The notes beneath the pieces are model-generated. The model did no database searches. It worked only from the letters and a program-made list of their open reading frames with translations, and was not told the origin of the DNA. Positions 9,288 to 64,000 of a stretch of DNA of 64,000 bases are shown here, in pieces. How positions within the stretch are numbered: position 1 is the stretch's first letter; every line of letters begins with the position of its first letter. This DNA comes from Candidatus Daviesbacteria bacterium RIFCSPHIGHO2_12_FULL_37_16 (GTDB taxonomy: Bacteria; Patescibacteriota; Microgenomatia; Daviesbacterales; UBA10151). The stretch is from NCBI GenBank assembly GCA_001776785.1, contig MFDF01000002.1:6894-70893 (forward strand). The letters run 5' to 3'. Both the position numbers and the translations under genes were made by a program.

Positions 9288-10166
9288 ATGAATGTATCTA
9301 TCGTTATACCAAATTGGAATGGGGAGGAAAGATTAAGAAGAAACTTACCTAAGGTTTTAGAGGTGGGTGATGTTGATGAAATAATTGTAGTTGATGACGG
9401 GTCAACTGATGGAAGTGTGCAACTTTTAGAAAGGGAATTTCCAAAAGTAAAATTAATAAAAAAGCAAAAAAATTCCGGTTTTTCTTCAACTGTAAATTTG
9501 GGGGTAAAAGAAGCAAAAGGGGAATTAATATTCCTTCTCAATTCTGATGCTGTTCCAGCAAGAGACTGCTTAAAATTTATACTTCCACATTTTAAAGATC
9601 CAAGGGTTTTTAGTGTGGGATTAAATAATGGTGGTTCATGGTCCTGGGCCAAATTTGAAGATGGATATTTTTGGCACTATCAGTCAAAAGAAAAAACACC
9701 AAAGATCCACCAGACTCTTTGGGTTTCAGGGGGGAGTGGTGTTTTTAGAAAAGATATCTGGGAAAAACTAGGAGGGTTAGATGAGCTTTTTGACCCATTT
9801 TATGAGGAGGATTTGGATTTAGGTTATAGGGCAACCAAAAGAGGGTATATTAATTTATGGGAACCAAAAGCAATAGTTGAGCATGGTAAAACAAAAGGTG
9901 TAATAGAAGAAAATTTTTCTAAATCAAGTGTTTCAGCTATTGCCCAGAGAAATCAGCTTTTGTTTATCTGGAAAAATATTACAGATGAAGATTTGTTTAT
10001 GCAGCATAAAATCAGTCTAATAAAAAAATTATTAATTAGTCCGAAGTATTGGTCAGTATTGATTTCAGCTTTAGGGAAAATGGGTAAGTTGAGATCTAAA
10101 AGACTGAGAGAGATAAAAGATGAAGCAATTTCTGATAAAGAGATCTTGAAAAAGTTTAAGGATTGA
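9288..10166 (+). CDS. glycosyltransferase family 2
   Basis: VSIVIPNWNGEE...VVDDGSTDGS and LNSDA (DxD) motif. Confidence 0.7.
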   Translation: MNVSIVIPNWNGEERLRRNLPKVLEVGDVDEIIVVDDGSTDGSVQLLEREFPKVKLIKKQKNSGFSSTVNLGVKEAKGELIFLLNSDAVPARDCLKFILPHFKDPRVFSVGLNNGGSWSWAKFEDGYFWHYQSKEKTPKIHQTLWVSGGSGVFRKDIWEKLGGLDELFDPFYEEDLDLGYRATKRGYINLWEPKAIVEHGKTKGVIEENFSKSSVSAIAQRNQLLFIWKNITDEDLFMQHKISLIKKLLISPKYWSVLISALGKMGKLRSKRLREIKDEAISDKEILKKFKD

Positions 10167-27491: not shown

Positions 27492-28127
27492 ATGCCTGCT
27501 GTTACTACTGAAGGACTTATTTTAAGAAGGTCTAATTTTGGGGAGGCTGATAGGGTTTTGACTGTTTTAACTGACAGATATGGGAAGATTTCTGTGATTG
27601 CAAGAGGGGTGAGGAAGATTACCAGCAGGAGGGCTGGGAATATAGAAATTTTAAACAGGGTTAAGCTGCATTTATTTAAAGCTAAAAGTTATACACTTTC
27701 TGAGGCAGAGAGTATTGAAACATTTCAAGTTGTTAAAGATAATTTAACATTGGCTACAACTGCATTCCATATCCTGGAATTAGTAGACAGGTTGGTGGTT
27801 GAGGAGCAGAGAAATCCTCAGGTTTACAGTTTAACTGTTGCTGTTTTGCATTTACTGGAAAAAAACCCCAGACAGATTTTTATCAGGGCTTTTGAGGTGA
27901 AACTATTAAGTGTATTAGGATTTTGGTCTATAGATGCAATTAAAGATTTATCTAATGATCAGAAAATATTACTTATGAAATTAGAGGAATTTTCCTGGGA
28001 CCAAATTGAGGAGATGGAGATTTTAAGCGAGCAGGCTGTAGCTTTGGAGAGGATTTTAAGATATTATATGGAGAGAATACTTGAGTCTAAGCTCAAGAGT
28101 GTGAATGTGATGAAGGAGTTAAAGTAA
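27492..28127 (+). CDS. recO: DNA repair protein RecO
   Basis: N-terminal OB-fold sequence (EGLILRRSNFGEADRVLTVLTDRYGKISVIARGVRK) typical of RecO. Confidence 0.75.
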   Translation: MPAVTTEGLILRRSNFGEADRVLTVLTDRYGKISVIARGVRKITSRRAGNIEILNRVKLHLFKAKSYTLSEAESIETFQVVKDNLTLATTAFHILELVDRLVVEEQRNPQVYSLTVAVLHLLEKNPRQIFIRAFEVKLLSVLGFWSIDAIKDLSNDQKILLMKLEEFSWDQIEEMEILSEQAVALERILRYYMERILESKLKSVNVMKELK

Positions 28128-28147
28128 TATTTTTAACAGTAATGTTT

Positions 28148-28272
28148 AAGTCGCTCATCAGAGCACAAAGTACCGCTCGGACCGAATTCCTCGCTGTAGG
28201 ATCGCAAGTTACCAGGCAACTGCATAACTTGCTCTCCAACTACTTTGTTGCTTCTGATTTCGCGACTTTGCA
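28148..28272 (+). ncRNA. conserved structured intergenic element, copy A (candidate novel ncRNA or cis-regulatory RNA)
   Basis: GC-rich 125 nt in a 257-nt gap. Shares sequence blocks and three helices whose stems differ in sequence but stay complementary with 63446-63576: hairpin GCAAGTTA/TAACTTGC with conserved loop TACCAGGCAACTGCA, helix ACAAAGT/ACTTTGT, and mini-hairpin GGA-CCGAAT-TCC. Confidence 0.4.
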
Positions 28273-28384
28273 AATTTTAAATAATTATGAATAGTGATCA
28301 AAATTTAATGGAAAAAATTGTAGCCCTTTGTAAGGAAACCTTGTTTTTGTTCGCTCCGCTCACAAAAATAAAAGAAGGGTTAAG

Positions 28385-29695
28385 ATGATTAATGATTTAA
28401 TGGATAAGATAGTAGCTTTGTGTAAGCGACGTGGATTTGTTTATCCTGGGTCTGAGATTTATGGAGGGTTAGCTGGAACTTGGGATTATGGACCTGCAGG
28501 TGCATTAATGAAGAAAAATTTGAAAGATCTCTGGTGGAAAGAGATGGTTCAATTAAGAGATGATGTTGTTGGGCTTGACGGGGCAATTATGATGAACCCC
28601 AGGGCATGGGAGGCATCAGGGCATGTTGAAGCTTTTGTTGACCCCCTGGTTGAGTGCAAAATTTGCCACCAAAGATTTAGGGCAGATAAATTAGAAGAGA
28701 TTGAAGAGCATACCAAAAACCATGGGGGTATGATGGTTGACTGGACTGAGCCAGAGCAGTTTAACCTATTGGTTAAAGCGTATTTGGGCGTTATTGAGGG
28801 AAAACAGTCTGAGATTTATTTAAGAGGAGAAATTACTAATGGTGTCCATGTAAATTTTAAAAATGTAATGGACTCAACAAGAGTAAAAATTCCTTTTGGA
28901 ATTGCCCAGATTGGAAAAGCTTTCAGGAATGAGATTACTCCAGGAAATTTTACTTTTAGATCCAGAGAGTTTGAACAGATGGAGGTCCAGTTTTATATAA
29001 AGCCAGTAGATGAAGAAGGTAAGAAGTGGTTTGAATACTGGAAGCAAAACAGGATGGACTGGTATTTATCATTAGGTATGAAAAAAGAAAACTTAAGGTT
29101 CAGGGACCATGAAGACAAGGAAAGGGCGCATTATGCAAAGGCTGCAACTGATATTGAATACAATGCCCCCTGGGGTTGGCAGGAGTTTATGGGAATTCAT
29201 CATCGTGGTGACTGGGATTTATCTAGACATGAAAAATTTAGCGGACAAAATTTAAAGGTCCGCGATATTGAGACAAATGAGGAATACTTTCCTTGGGACA
29301 TTGAGACATCTGCAGGTGTAGATAGATCTTTTCTTTTTTTACTTATTGATTCATATAGGGCAGAGGGAGGAAGAGTTTGGTTGCAACTTGATCCAAGGCT
29401 TGCTCCATATAAAGTGGCTGTATTTCCTCTATTGGGTAACAAACCGGAACTTATAGATAAAGCTAAAAAGATTTTTAATGATTTAAAGAAAGATTATATG
29501 ATTGCCTGGGATGATAGGGGGAATATTGGGAAAAGATATGCTAGCCAGGATGAAATTGGTACTCCCTATTGCATTACTGTAGATTTTGATACACTAGAAG
29601 ATGAAAGTGTGACAGTGAGGGATAGGGATAGTGCAAAACAGGAGAGAGTGAAGATTGCTGAATTGAAGCAATATATAATGGAAAGATTAAGGTAG
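28385..29695 (+). CDS. glyQS: glycine--tRNA ligase, alpha2 (archaeal/eukaryotic-like) type
   Basis: Full-length class II GlyRS similarity from the N-terminus (DKIVALCKRRGFVYPGSEIYGGLAGTWDYGP). Good SD (AAGAAGGG) upstream. Confidence 0.85.
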   Translation: MINDLMDKIVALCKRRGFVYPGSEIYGGLAGTWDYGPAGALMKKNLKDLWWKEMVQLRDDVVGLDGAIMMNPRAWEASGHVEAFVDPLVECKICHQRFRADKLEEIEEHTKNHGGMMVDWTEPEQFNLLVKAYLGVIEGKQSEIYLRGEITNGVHVNFKNVMDSTRVKIPFGIAQIGKAFRNEITPGNFTFRSREFEQMEVQFYIKPVDEEGKKWFEYWKQNRMDWYLSLGMKKENLRFRDHEDKERAHYAKAATDIEYNAPWGWQEFMGIHHRGDWDLSRHEKFSGQNLKVRDIETNEEYFPWDIETSAGVDRSFLFLLIDSYRAEGGRVWLQLDPRLAPYKVAVFPLLGNKPELIDKAKKIFNDLKKDYMIAWDDRGNIGKRYASQDEIGTPYCITVDFDTLEDESVTVRDRDSAKQERVKIAELKQYIMERLR

Positions 29696-30619: not shown

Positions 30620-30724
30620 ACTACCCCGCAGCAAGCTGACGGGGTATCGCTTTGCGAAAGTTCTTGTTTCGGATAGTTGTAACCTTGCAGTAAACTGCTA
30701 GGTATTTTATGAAACAATAAATTT

Positions 30725-35994: not shown

Positions 35995-37034
35995 TAGAAC
36001 TCCTAGGTCTTGTTTTAATATCTTTTTTAATTACCAGTATTTTACTAGTTCCCTATATTGATTTTCTATACCATTTGAGGAAGAAAAATTTAAAGAAGCT
36101 TGAGATTCATCACAGTGAAGTAAATATTGAAGCATCTAAGAACCGTAATATACATACACCTATAACAAATAAACTATTAGGATATAAAGATATTGATACT
36201 CCTGTTGGAGGAGGATTGTTAATTATTCCTGTGACAATAATTTTAACCATTCTGACTGTTTTATTTACTGATATTGAGATGTCAAATGAAATTTATCTTT
36301 TAATTTTTACATTAATATCTTTTGGACTGATTGGATTTGTAGATGATATCAGGAAAATTTTTGCCCTTTTTTATGGGAAATATCATGGGATCCGCGGAAG
36401 GTACTTGTTAATCCTTCAGTTAATTTTTGCCAGCTTAATAGCCTGTGCGCTTTATTTTGTTGTTGGCATCAATAATCTCTATGTTCCAATTTTTGGCAAT
36501 GTTGTATTGGGAAGTTTTTATATACCACTGGCAGTATTTATTATTGTTTCATTTGCAAATGCATATAATATATCTGATGGGCTTGACGGACTATCTTCCG
36601 GACTGTTAATGATTTGTCTGTTTGCTTTTTTAGCATTGGCTAGTGCGTCTTTCAATCAATACCTGTCAGTATTTGTTGGTGTATGGATTGGTGCATTGAT
36701 TGCGTTTTTATATTTTAATGTATACCCTGCCAGGATTTATTTAGGAGATGCAGGTGCTTATGGGTTTGGAGCAGCATTGGCAGTAGTTGGGTTATTAACC
36801 GGGAAGGTTGTGGGTTTGGCAGTGATTGGAGGTATGTATATTATCATAGTTGCATCCTCTTTAATCCAGATACTTTCAAAAAGATTTTTGCATAAAAAAA
36901 TATTACCTGTAACACCAATACATATGTATTTTAAATTCTTAGGATGGGAGGAGCCAAAAATTGTTTTTAGATTTTGGCTGGCAGGAATTATCTTTGCATT
37001 TTTTGGCTTGTGGCTGGCGCTACTTTCCTCATGA
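35991..37034 (+). CDS. mraY: phospho-N-acetylmuramoyl-pentapeptide transferase MraY
   Basis: NAYNISDGLDGL signature, polytopic. Confidence 0.9.
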   Translation: MIELLGLVLISFLITSILLVPYIDFLYHLRKKNLKKLEIHHSEVNIEASKNRNIHTPITNKLLGYKDIDTPVGGGLLIIPVTIILTILTVLFTDIEMSNEIYLLIFTLISFGLIGFVDDIRKIFALFYGKYHGIRGRYLLILQLIFASLIACALYFVVGINNLYVPIFGNVVLGSFYIPLAVFIIVSFANAYNISDGLDGLSSGLLMICLFAFLALASASFNQYLSVFVGVWIGALIAFLYFNVYPARIYLGDAGAYGFGAALAVVGLLTGKVVGLAVIGGMYIIIVASSLIQILSKRFLHKKILPVTPIHMYFKFLGWEEPKIVFRFWLAGIIFAFFGLWLALLSS

Positions 37035-42951: not shown

Positions 42952-43037
42952 TTCTTGCAGGTATTGTCTAATCCCACCTTAAATGTCTCAAACTTTTAGG
43001 CACAAATATTATTAAATATTCCAAGGTTGCCGCACAA

Positions 43038-43065
43038 TCAACCTCGGAGGTTGCTGTTTAATTCT
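43038..43065 (+). terminator. candidate intrinsic terminator after the dcw operon
   Basis: CAACCT-CGG-AGGTTG hairpin followed by CTGTTTAATTCTT. Confidence 0.3.
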
Positions 43066-43161
43066 TCAGACATTAACTTCTTGAAGCAAATTCAATAAAA
43101 TTTTACAATACAATCTATGCTTAAACCTTTTCTAACAATTTTATCCACATGGAGTAAATTG

Positions 43162-43701
43162 TTAGGTAAAGAAGTAAGAGATTAGTTTATTTTGGCTTTC
43201 AAGAGAGTTTGCTTCAATGTATTCAACTTCTGCAGCTACCCCAAAATAGTCCCTTAAGTATTTAACTATCTCAAAACAAGGATAGGGGTGAATAAAAACA
43301 CTGTTTTGCAGTTTATAGAAACCAATCTCTTTCATCTTTTTCCTAAGTAAAAATCTTTCATTATTTTTACTGATTGGGATATCAAAAATTATTATCCTCC
43401 ATTTCCCATCCCAACTTATTGGTTTTTCAATTTTTAAATTATCAATCTGATATCTTCTTAGCTTTGCTTTACCATCTTTTGTAAGCTTTATAACTGAAAC
43501 TCCCTTTTTATTCTTAATTATTTCTACTAAGCTTCTTTTTTGAAGTCTTTTTATTTCCTGGTTTATTCTTGCGAGATCAACTTTTTTAAGTAATGGTAAG
43601 ACTTTAGCAAGACCAGGTGCTACAGACACAATAGGAACAATACCAATAATGCCCAGTGCAATTAAAATATTTTTTGCAACATCTTTTTGTTTTTCAGTCA
43701 T
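43162..43701 (-). CDS. PaaX-like winged-helix transcriptional regulator with N-terminal membrane anchor (short form)
   Basis: N-terminal TM, a wHTH-like segment and the WDGKW-containing segment (WDGKWRIIIFDIP...YKLQNSVFIHP) that aligns to PaaX WDGKWLLLL and superficially resembles Cas2. Confidence 0.45.
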   Translation of the reverse strand: MTEKQKDVAKNILIALGIIGIVPIVSVAPGLAKVLPLLKKVDLARINQEIKRLQKRSLVEIIKNKKGVSVIKLTKDGKAKLRRYQIDNLKIEKPISWDGKWRIIIFDIPISKNNERFLLRKKMKEIGFYKLQNSVFIHPYPCFEIVKYLRDYFGVAAEVEYIEANSLESQNKLISYFFT

Positions 43702-43863
43702 AAGAATAGTCTATTGAATTTTATAACAAAATGCACTACGTGGATAAAAATGTTATCGATACTTATATTTATAACTTTAATTACTTTAATTGATAGTTAA
43801 AATAATACCCAGACCAATTTATTAGGTTGCAGGAGGGCTTCAACTTCGGCTACAATACTACGT

Positions 43864-62495: not shown

Positions 62496-63050
62496 ATGGA
62501 TCCTTTTACAATTGGAATTATTGTAGCCGTAGTAGTTGCCTTAGGCTGGCTTTTGATGACCTATAATGGTCTGGTTTCCTTGAGAAACAGAGTAAAAGAA
62601 GCATGGAGCCAGATTGATGTGCAGCTTAAAAGAAGAGCCTCTTTAATTCCAAACTTAGTCGAATCTGTTAAGGGTTATGCAAAGCATGAAAAAGAAGTTT
62701 TTGAAAATGTAACTAAAGCCAGGTCTGCTTTAATGGGAGCTACAGATCCTGCACACAAAGCTGCAGCCAATGATATGCTGACAGGAGCACTGAAATCCCT
62801 TTTTGCTGTGGCTGAGGCATATCCTAACCTGAGAGCTTCTGAGAACTTCAAACAGCTTCAGGATGAGATTTCTGATACAGAGACCAAAGTTGCAGCCTCC
62901 AGACAGTTTTACAATACAAATGTTTTGGATTTAAATAATACTTTAGAGATGTTTCCAAGTTCTCTGGTTGGATCCATGTTTGGGTTCCAAAAAGAAGAGT
63001 TCTTTAAAGCTACTGAAGAAGATAAAAAAGATATCCAAGTAAAATTCTAA
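62496..63050 (+). CDS. lemA: LemA family protein
   Basis: N-terminal TM then [25 protein letters not shown], the characteristic LemA sequence. Confidence 0.8.
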
Positions 63051-63060
63051 TTCACTTATC

Positions 63061-63444
63061 TTGACGCCTCCTTCTAAAATTTATGTTAAGAAAACTTCCA
63101 CTATGGGTAATGGAGTTTTTGCGAGTTCTCTGATTAAGAAGGGTGAGATTATTGAGGTATCGCCAATAATTGTTTTGGAGTTTGAGGAGCTGGTGGATAC
63201 AAAGTGGAATAATCTTTTTAACTACTATTTTTGGATGGATGAGTATGTTGTTTTAGCTTTGGGGTATGGGTCTTTATATAACCACTCTGATGATGCTAAT
63301 GCAGAATATAAGATTGACCAAAAGAGTAAAACTATAACTTTTACAGCTTCTAAAGATATAAAAAAAGGTGAGGAGATTTTTTTTAATTACAAAGGAAAAG
63401 AAAAGACTAAGACTCCGCTCTGGTTTGAAAAAGAAAGACAATAA
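63061..63444 (+). CDS. SET domain protein (putative protein lysine methyltransferase)
   Basis: GNGVFA...IKKGEII (SET N-terminus), YNHSDDAN (NHS motif) and KGEEIFFNY (ELxFDY-like). The start is probably TTG at 63061; ATG at 63103 is the alternative. Confidence 0.6.
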   Translation: MTPPSKIYVKKTSTMGNGVFASSLIKKGEIIEVSPIIVLEFEELVDTKWNNLFNYYFWMDEYVVLALGYGSLYNHSDDANAEYKIDQKSKTITFTASKDIKKGEEIFFNYKGKEKTKTPLWFEKERQ

Positions 63445-63445
63445 T

Positions 63446-63576
63446 TGCGAGTCCGATCGTCGGATCATAAAAGTACCGTTCGGGTCGAATCCCTCACTAT
63501 GTGAGAAAAAATTACCAATCAACTGCAGAATTTTTTCTCAGATTACTTTTATTGATTCTGACTTCGCGTCCTTTGC
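63446..63576 (+). ncRNA. conserved structured intergenic element, copy B (candidate novel ncRNA or cis-regulatory RNA)
   Basis: Shares the AAAGTACCGTTCGGGTCGAATCCCTC block, a hairpin GAGAAAAAATT/AATTTTTTCTC with loop ACCAATCAACTGCAG, helix ATAAAAGT/ACTTTTAT and tail TTCTGACTTCGCG with copy A. Two small track ORFs here are likely spurious. Confidence 0.4.
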
Positions 63577-63681
63577 TTACTCGATTTAGTGAAGAAAAAA
63601 TGTTAAAATAGGCACACTGTGGCTACAATTAATACAGCTTGGGATCATGTAAATTCAAATATCTTTAAGACATGGGTAATC

Positions 63682-64000
63682 ATGTTTTTGTTTTCTGTGT
63701 TTGTGATGGGAGTAGTTTATGTTTTTGCCAGGGGGTTTGGGTATGATTCTGTTGGTGTTTTGGGATTGACTGGGTTTGCCCTTATTTTAACTGGAGTAAT
63801 GAATTTTGTGAGTTACTGGTGGTCAGATAAGATTGTTTTAGGGATTTCCCAGGCTAAACCCGTTTCTTTGGAATCCAACAGACAGCTTTACCATATGGTA
63901 GAAAATATTGGGATTGCTGCAGGACTTCCTACACCTAAGATTTATATTATAGATGACACTGCTCCCAATGCTTTTGCAACCGGAAGAGATCCAAAACATG
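63682..64000 (+). CDS. htpX: protease HtpX (M48 family), 5' partial, runs off the window end
   Basis: Two N-terminal TM helices, then AKPVSLESNRQLYHMVENIGIAAGLPTPKIYIIDDTAPNAFATG, typical of HtpX before the HExxH motif. GTG at 63619 is an alternative start. Confidence 0.65.
   Translation, partial: MFLFSVFVMGVVYVFARGFGYDSVGVLGLTGFALILTGVMNFVSYWWSDKIVLGISQAKPVSLESNRQLYHMVENIGIAAGLPTPKIYIIDDTAPNAFATGRDPKH

Follow-up and report, generated by a model that had tools for sequence, protein, structure and literature searches.

Genomic context and the two copies of F1

The window (the whole 64-kb stretch of DNA that was analysed) has an average G+C of 34% and carries two copies of a structured element, here called F1, both on the plus strand. 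Alignment with MAFFT and a search with a covariance model built from the pair (R1) placed the first copy (F1-A) between recO and glyS and the second (F1-B) between a SET-domain gene and htpX. The features are as follows.

28146-28276, plus strand: F1-A, R1 score 148.6 bits, between recO (27492-28127) and glyS (28385-29695)
63061-63444, plus strand: SET-domain gene from the ORF list (Pfam SET, E = 8.6e-17)
63446-63582, plus strand: F1-B, full covariance-model match, R1 score 159.7 bits, with a core insert at about 63454-63575

The two copies lie 35 kb apart, and no third copy was found in the 64-kb window when R1 was run with its filters off. Over the core, 83 of 115 columns (72%) were identical, and the proportion was the same in paired and in unpaired columns. 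A first-pass annotation of this DNA had described the copies as about 60% identical and as not a recent duplication; the second point was supported, and their identity over the 115-column core is somewhat higher than the figure given. Unchanged F1 copies recurred in at least 8 independent assemblies from the same Rifle groundwater population, and an assembly artefact was therefore excluded. F1 is known from two sequences of one population, and its boundaries are approximate. The GlyRS was identical to an entry named ‘Candidatus Woesebacteria bacterium GW2011_GWB1_38_5b’, and the relatives of HtpX carried the name Daviesbacteria.

F1-B begins 2 nt past the SET stop codon (63442-63444). Its right boundary was taken from the flank homology with one relative (L085), which starts with ACTCGATTTAGT at window position 63576. 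The 3' edge (63575-63582) lies about 37-44 nt before the htpX GTG (63619) and the 5' edge about 173 nt before it, which corrects the distance of 40-100 nt upstream of the htpX start that had been given for this copy.

Secondary structure and its conservation

Both copies were folded by RNAalifold into a three-way junction composed of a long basal helix (P1), a short hairpin (P2) and a long hairpin (P3). The parts of F1-B are listed below.

63459-63475 with 63544-63562, plus strand: P1 basal helix, which encloses the junction; 16 pairs with bulges, 3 compensatory, 1 changed from A-U to G-U, 0 broken
63478-63497, plus strand: P2 hairpin, GU-UC-GGG / CCC-UC-AC; 5 pairs, 2 compensatory
63499-63543, plus strand: P3 hairpin; 12 modelled pairs, 5 compensatory

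The copies shared 37 pairs, with 10 changed on both sides, 1 changed from A-U to G-U and none broken. Column shuffles (n = 500) gave 2.15 ± 1.43 compensatory pairs (maximum 7) against the 10 observed, a count that 0/500 shuffles reached, and the refolded shuffles had an energy of -5.6 ± 2.7 against -28.0 observed, with 0/500 as low. Shifting the 3' partners by 1-3 columns left 33-49% of the cells paired, against 100% in the real alignment, and 0-2 compensatory pairs, against 10. With 37/37 pairs kept in both copies and 0/500 column shuffles as good, the earlier description of one architecture whose stems are swapped for complementary alternatives was confirmed.

The longer hairpin noticed in F1-B proved to be real, since P3 forms 12 contiguous pairs there (63502-63513 with 63529-63540), whereas the helix of F1-A is interrupted by a UC/UC internal loop. 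A conserved UC/UC internal loop is also present in P2. The P3 of F1-B is capped by a conserved 15-nt loop, ACCAAUCAACUGCAG (63514-63528), and the loop consensus of the two copies reads ACCA-NN-CAACUGCA-N, where NN is GG in F1-A and AU (63518-63519) in F1-B. P2 ends in a T-loop-like hexaloop, UCGAAU in F1-B (63485-63490) and CCGAAU in F1-A. Between the copies, 12/15 positions of the P3 loop and 5/6 of the P2 loop were conserved. F1-A, whose minimum free energy is -48.3 kcal/mol (z = -5.3), is closed by an additional outer stem of 7 bp in which AAGUCGC (28148-28154) pairs with GCGACUU (28262-28268). The plus and minus strands of F1 folded about equally well, so the folding energy settles neither the strand nor the choice between RNA and single-stranded DNA.

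A structure kept perfect in both copies despite 28% divergence, together with the conservation of the P3 (12/15) and P2 (5/6) loops, is what would be expected if F1 were a new class of host-functional structured RNA (for example an intercistronic ‘punctuation’ or processing module, an RNA that binds a protein, or a ribozyme) that was duplicated to two junctions. This reading is a serious rival, though less probable in our judgement than the mobile repeat preferred below; against it stand the equal folding of the two strands, the undetected promoter and terminator, and the fact that the structure is drawn from two sequences only.

Coding potential and comparison with known RNAs

F1 is non-coding. 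No reading frame was open across both copies, as each frame open in one was closed in the other, and a concatenated six-frame translation of F1 found no homologue among 5.8 billion proteins. An exhaustive phmmer search of the 73-aa ORF that overlaps F1-B against 1.84 billion representatives matched only giant adhesins with Ig_7 repeats. That homology was rejected as spurious; the scores were summed over repeats of 30 aa at about 30% identity, lay partly outside F1, and involved a frame that is closed in F1-A. The two small overlapping ORFs had been suspected to be artefacts, and the lack of a commonly open frame and of a real protein homologue supports this.

The presence of compact structured sequence and of 73- and 82-codon ORFs over F1-B would fit a pair of independent small RNA genes or a small protein gene. 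We regard this as barely plausible: the coding results above are unfavourable to a protein, no sigma-70-like promoter or intrinsic terminator was detected on the plus strand flanking either copy, no terminator-like site was found in 62900-63800, and F1-B starts almost directly after a stop codon.

At the Rfam gathering threshold, the whole window contained only 3 tRNAs, all away from F1. At E <= 10, the regions around both F1 copies and the sequences of two relatives (L023 and L029) returned only noise (for example plasmodium snoR31 and STnc370), in a search that covered T-box, tRNA, 5S, thermometer and all self-cleaving ribozyme families. At this threshold 0 matches were obtained at F1 with the tRNA, tRNA-like and 5S models, and none with the hammerhead, twister, twister-sister, pistol, hatchet and HDV-like ribozymes. 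The absence of any Rfam match at E <= 10, known self-cleaving ribozymes included, also counts against a host-functional RNA.

Several candidates were considered and rejected. A hammerhead on the minus strand (28148-28268) was suggested by GUCGC-GAAA ... CUGAUGA-GCGAC in F1-A, but F1-B has GAAG and CCGACGA in their place, so that the core is not kept between the copies, and the helix topology was unfit; the resemblance was taken as coincidence. The attC, REP, DGR template or variable repeat, retron, 5S, Y-RNA and 6S types were dismissed on their ends, topology, mismatch pattern or gene neighbourhood. In particular, REP/RAYT palindromes are single GC-rich hairpins of 20-40 bp with a GTAG or CGTC head and a high copy number, whereas F1 is a three-way junction of about 125 nt, without a head of this kind, in two copies.

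A tRNA-sensing, T-box-like role was weighed separately, with the variable triplet of the P3 loop as the specifier (GGC followed by A before glyS, AUC followed by A in F1-B). GGC is the usual specifier codon of glycine T-boxes. The sole internal difference of the P3 loop produces this triplet, with a purine next to it, directly upstream of the glycyl-tRNA synthetase gene, and P2 bears a T-loop-like CGAAU loop; F1-A therefore resembles a T-box riboswitch (RF00230) in its position before an aminoacyl-tRNA synthetase gene, in its GGC and A within a conserved loop and in its T-loop-like hairpin. On the other side, GG would arise by chance at two free positions about 1 time in 16, and of the two cases available, GGC and glyS agree while AUC (Ile) and htpX-gatCAB disagree, there being no isoleucine link. 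The triplet lies in a terminal loop and not in the internal specifier loop of a Stem I. F1 also differs from T-boxes in lacking a T-box sequence, a UGGN bulge (UGG occurs nowhere in F1) and a terminator or sequestrator, and neither copy matches the covariance model of the T-box (RF00230) or of the tRNA family at E <= 10. Relatives regulate glyS without F1. The T-box-like reading is accordingly judged highly improbable.

Distribution of F1 and empty sites in relatives

At the orthologous junctions, the closest relatives are without F1. In L030 and L031 the recO and glyS genes overlap (ATGA), with neither a spacer nor F1 at site 1. The htpX spacer at site 2 is short in L025 (35 nt) and in L027 (8 nt according to the gene calls), and lacks F1 in both. 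The closest relatives by HtpX identity, L085 (90%) and L023 (88%), carry another element, F2, in that spacer. With R1 on both strands, no F1 was found in about 135 kb of relatives' DNA. F1 is thus found as two dispersed copies whose sites are both empty in relatives. Its dispensability in several close relatives, where the genes overlap or nearly abut, speaks against a host-functional RNA.

Wider searches used exact IUPAC patterns, which diverged F1 copies may escape. The pattern TTACCANNCAACTGCANAA matched exactly at the two F1 copies only within the window. The scan of GTDB genomes gave 2 matches, both by chance (high-GC or coding), that of the JGI metagenomes gave 13 matches, 0 of them alignable to F1, and that of IMG/VR gave one recurrent match within a 233-aa phage ORF. 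Since the source contigs themselves were not returned by these collection scans, the absence of F1 from GTDB, JGI and IMG/VR is weak evidence. A blastn search of phages and plasmids for F1 returned nothing.

The flanks of both copies carry traces that bear on how F1 came to lie there.

28287-28388, plus strand: 33-codon ORF, a degenerate second copy of the glyS 5' end, alignable with the start of glyS in L029, L030 and L031
63448-63453, plus strand: GCGAGT, the left half of an inverted repeat that flanks F1-B, with its partner ACTCGA at 63576-63581

In L085 the halves of the palindrome are adjacent (ATCGAG-A-CTCGAT) with nothing between them, and this arrangement suggests that F1-B was inserted into the centre of a pre-existing palindrome. 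Just downstream of F1-A, the TGA of the 33-codon ORF overlaps the present glyS ATG (ATGA), and this remnant of a second glyS start indicates that the DNA was rearranged there. The approximately 19 nt before this ATGA weakly resemble the recO 3' end, a resemblance that suggests a duplicated recO/glyS junction formed when F1 or a foreign allele arrived.

Regarding the ends of the element, F1-A has perfect 7-bp terminal inverted repeats (AAGTCGC/GCGACTT), while F1-B is without an equivalent and takes its outer pairing from flank DNA. No target-site duplication was seen at the F1 boundaries, as approximately placed, on comparison with L029, L030 and L085, where the sites are empty or otherwise occupied. 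Pfam detected no transposase or integrase domain among ten window ORFs (all eight on the minus strand and two on the plus strand).

F2 and other structured inserts at the same junctions

F2 is a distinct GC-rich structured element of related Microgenomates and was found at the same two junctions as F1. Its four copies are as follows.

L029 421-550, co-oriented: F2, recO-glyS
L023 3445-3570, co-oriented: F2, lemA-htpX
L085 809-927, co-oriented: F2, SET-htpX
L030 12245-12369, co-oriented: fourth F2 copy, flanked by a hypothetical gene and by mraZ, with no counterpart at this place in L031

The presence of F2 in L030 and its absence at the same place in L031 indicate that F2 is dispersed and insertion-polymorphic. 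Across the four copies, F2 measured 115-130 nt with a G+C of 44-61% and took the form of a rod-like hairpin whose conserved boxes are GGGGUCCUG, CAGCCCCA and GGGGCRCCCCG, with a hypervariable tip and an outer stem of GUUURY/RYAAAC. It had no Rfam match, and its covariance model found no copy in the window.

F2 is like F1 in occupying the recO-glyS and (SET/lemA)-htpX junctions, in length and orientation, in a G+C above the window average and in being insertion-polymorphic. It is unlike F1 in folding as a rod-like hairpin where F1 forms a three-way junction, and the two show no significant sequence similarity; homology between them was rejected, since local alignments were no better than those of shuffles. 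All copies of both elements (2 of F1 and 4 of F2) were co-oriented with the flanking genes.

Two unrelated families at the same two junctions, with every copy co-oriented with transcription, favour a host-functional RNA, in which case F2 would be a functional analogue of F1. A more specific form of this idea, which we hold to be quite unlikely, is that F1 and F2 are interchangeable, lineage-specific intercistronic RNA modules at the same CPR operon junctions, whose structure and loops are selected by the host and whose family is set by a co-evolving trans-acting factor. Such modules could be processing or self-cleaving ‘punctuation’ elements, or insulators that recruit an RNase or another protein. 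A sub-variant in which a tRNA reads the P3-loop triplet (GGC before glyS) is more speculative still.

Other inserts and differences were noted in passing. The SET-htpX spacer of L024 contains a third kind of insert (9785-9850) with an outer stem CUCCACG/CGUGGAG and an inner stem GGUCGAA/UUCGACC. Close relatives (L023 and L027) differ in whether the SET gene itself intervenes between lemA and htpX, and extra ORFs of 54-80 aa occur at lemA-htpX in L024 and L085; this interval forms a variable hot spot. In the window, a GC-rich hairpin, CCCCG-CAGCAAGCUGA-CGGGG, lies at 30622-30660, past the 297-aa gene downstream of glyS, with another small hairpin, CGCUUUGCG, beyond it. In L030, the spacer after the corresponding gene downstream of glyS, before mraZ, is filled by F2; the window has no mraZ at that place.

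The putative htpX promoter and the leader question

The 45 nt before the htpX start were aligned between the window and five relatives (L023, L024, L025, L027 and L085) whose HtpX proteins are 77-90% identical. All 6 genomes share an invariant TGnTAnAAT box that lies 9-10 nt ahead of the start codon of htpX, the remaining spacer being variable, and no conserved Shine-Dalgarno sequence was found before htpX in this alignment.

63601-63609, plus strand: extended -10 promoter box of htpX, TG-T-TAAAAT, 9 nt before the GTG at 63619-63621; the -10 is at 63604-63609

From this alignment, htpX appears to have its own extended -10 promoter and a leaderless or near-leaderless mRNA. The putative -35 region lies in the ancestral flank DNA common to L085 (ACTCGATTTAGT onward), outside F1. 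As F1-B ends at or before 63582, the box at 63601-63609 sits between F1-B and htpX, and F1-B is therefore outside any leader made from that promoter. The GTG start codon of htpX in the window would be unusual for a leaderless gene.

These results bear on the proposal that F1 is a cis-regulatory leader (a riboswitch or RNA thermometer) of the downstream gene, which for F1-B would be htpX. It was prompted by a structured element on the same strand, within 40-175 nt of the start of a stress gene, and the first-pass annotation had considered the position compatible with such a role. The comparison does not support the proposal. The conserved extended -10 box intervenes, the probably leaderless mRNA offers no conserved Shine-Dalgarno sequence for sequestration, and no alternative terminator or sequestrator fold for htpX control was detected. 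F1 is absent upstream of htpX in L023, L024, L025, L027 and L085, the relatives with 77-90% identical HtpX. Furthermore, F1-A precedes the unrelated glyS gene, and its spacer behind recO is missing from relatives, where the two genes overlap (ATGA); a leader role at htpX is unsupported for this reason as well. A cis-regulatory leader is, in our estimate, very unlikely. The feature common to both copies is insertion after the end of the upstream gene, not the leader of a stress gene. A false lead, the htpX riboregulator, is removed in this way, and a probably leaderless htpX promoter is documented.

Interpretation of F1

The reading that we prefer, tentatively and with a probability of roughly 0.45, is that F1 is a lineage-specific, non-autonomous, insertion-polymorphic structured repeat that is carried passively on the transcript of the upstream gene, where its basal helix may protect or process the 3' end. 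F1 would spread, or would have spread, as a small mobile element, the mobility being deduced from presence and absence at orthologous sites. Its propagation would need a folded single strand, and this requirement would explain the structure-preserving divergence between source lineages. The lack of a transposase or integrase among the ten ORFs scanned and of a flanking promoter-plus-terminator pair fits a non-autonomous passenger. Both copies have the profile of small non-autonomous structured repeats, being placed just past a co-oriented gene, missing from sister genomes, folded into a structure maintained through compensatory change, and without an associated gene, promoter or terminator. 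The insertion polymorphism at both sites, the presence of the likewise dispersed F2 at these junctions in other relatives, the shared orientation of all six copies, the palindrome split around F1-B and the rearrangement beside F1-A also favour this reading.

By its position, F1 would be transcribed as a 3' untranslated or intercistronic part of the SET mRNA (F1-B) and of a recO-glyS co-transcript (F1-A); because it starts 2 nt past the SET stop, F1-B would most simply be the 3' untranslated part of SET. By analogy with known repeats, the basal helix of about 16-23 bp would act as a protective structure at the 3' end or as an RNase III-type processing structure. Any effect on htpX would be incidental, through insulation from upstream read-through.

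Some of the evidence weighs against the mobile-repeat reading. Only two F1 copies are known, from one population, no target duplication was seen, clear terminal inverted repeats occur in F1-A alone, and no related autonomous element is known. The 28% divergence with a perfect structure and with loops conserved as well as stems fits a host-selected functional RNA equally. That two unrelated families use the same pair of junctions could point to a function required there and not to an insertion preference.

Comparison with published repeats

Among published repeats, the nearest to F1 is bcr1 of the Bacillus cereus group, a MITE-like repeat of about 155 bp whose dispersed intergenic copies do not keep the same distribution from one related genome to another (PMC3184786). 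It is transcribed and adopts a cruciform-like fold, with a common stem and two independent stem-loops kept by compensatory changes (PMC3184786). F1 is alike in size, in intergenic dispersal, in non-conserved distribution, in a predicted fold of one stem that bears two stem-loops and in compensatory structure. The two differ in that bcr1 is numerous and bounded by 5-bp direct repeats, whereas F1 has two known copies and no detectable target duplication; F1 also lacks sequence similarity to bcr1, has a CPR bacterium as its host, and is predicted to be transcribed by read-through, which its place directly after co-oriented genes makes plausible.

Correia elements (CREE/nemis, Neisseria) and ERIC/IRU elements (enterobacteria) are non-autonomous intergenic repeats of about 100-150 bp that are transcribed together with their neighbour genes, and whose long hairpin is an RNase III target, bound or cleaved, that alters the fate of the mRNA (PMC2649163; PMC2229807). 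Correia elements in particular are bound and cleaved by RNase III (PMC2649163). The long basal helix of F1 and its position after gene ends fit the Correia/ERIC mode of action. Correia elements are further equipped with defined terminal inverted repeats of 26 bp, with a TA duplication and an IHF site, and with promoters that point outward; F1 showed none of these.

The genomes of CPR bacteria are extremely compact, and what lies outside their genes has hardly been explored. Against this background, a Microgenomates lineage carries a structurally constrained element of about 125 nt without a relative in Rfam or by sequence. The occurrence of at least 2 unrelated structured families at the same two junctions in sister genomes points either to an undescribed class of small CPR mobile elements that strongly favour certain junctions or to some function for which these places require a folded RNA. 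The covariance models of F1 and F2 can be used across all Patescibacteria genomes.

Other features of the window

A gene on the minus strand at 43162-43701, the minority strand, encodes a 179-aa protein with a PaaX_M/Cas2-like domain. It is flanked by AT-rich gaps (42952-43161 and 43702-43863) that are among the few longer than 150 nt in the window. The mraY gene is intact at 35995-36973.
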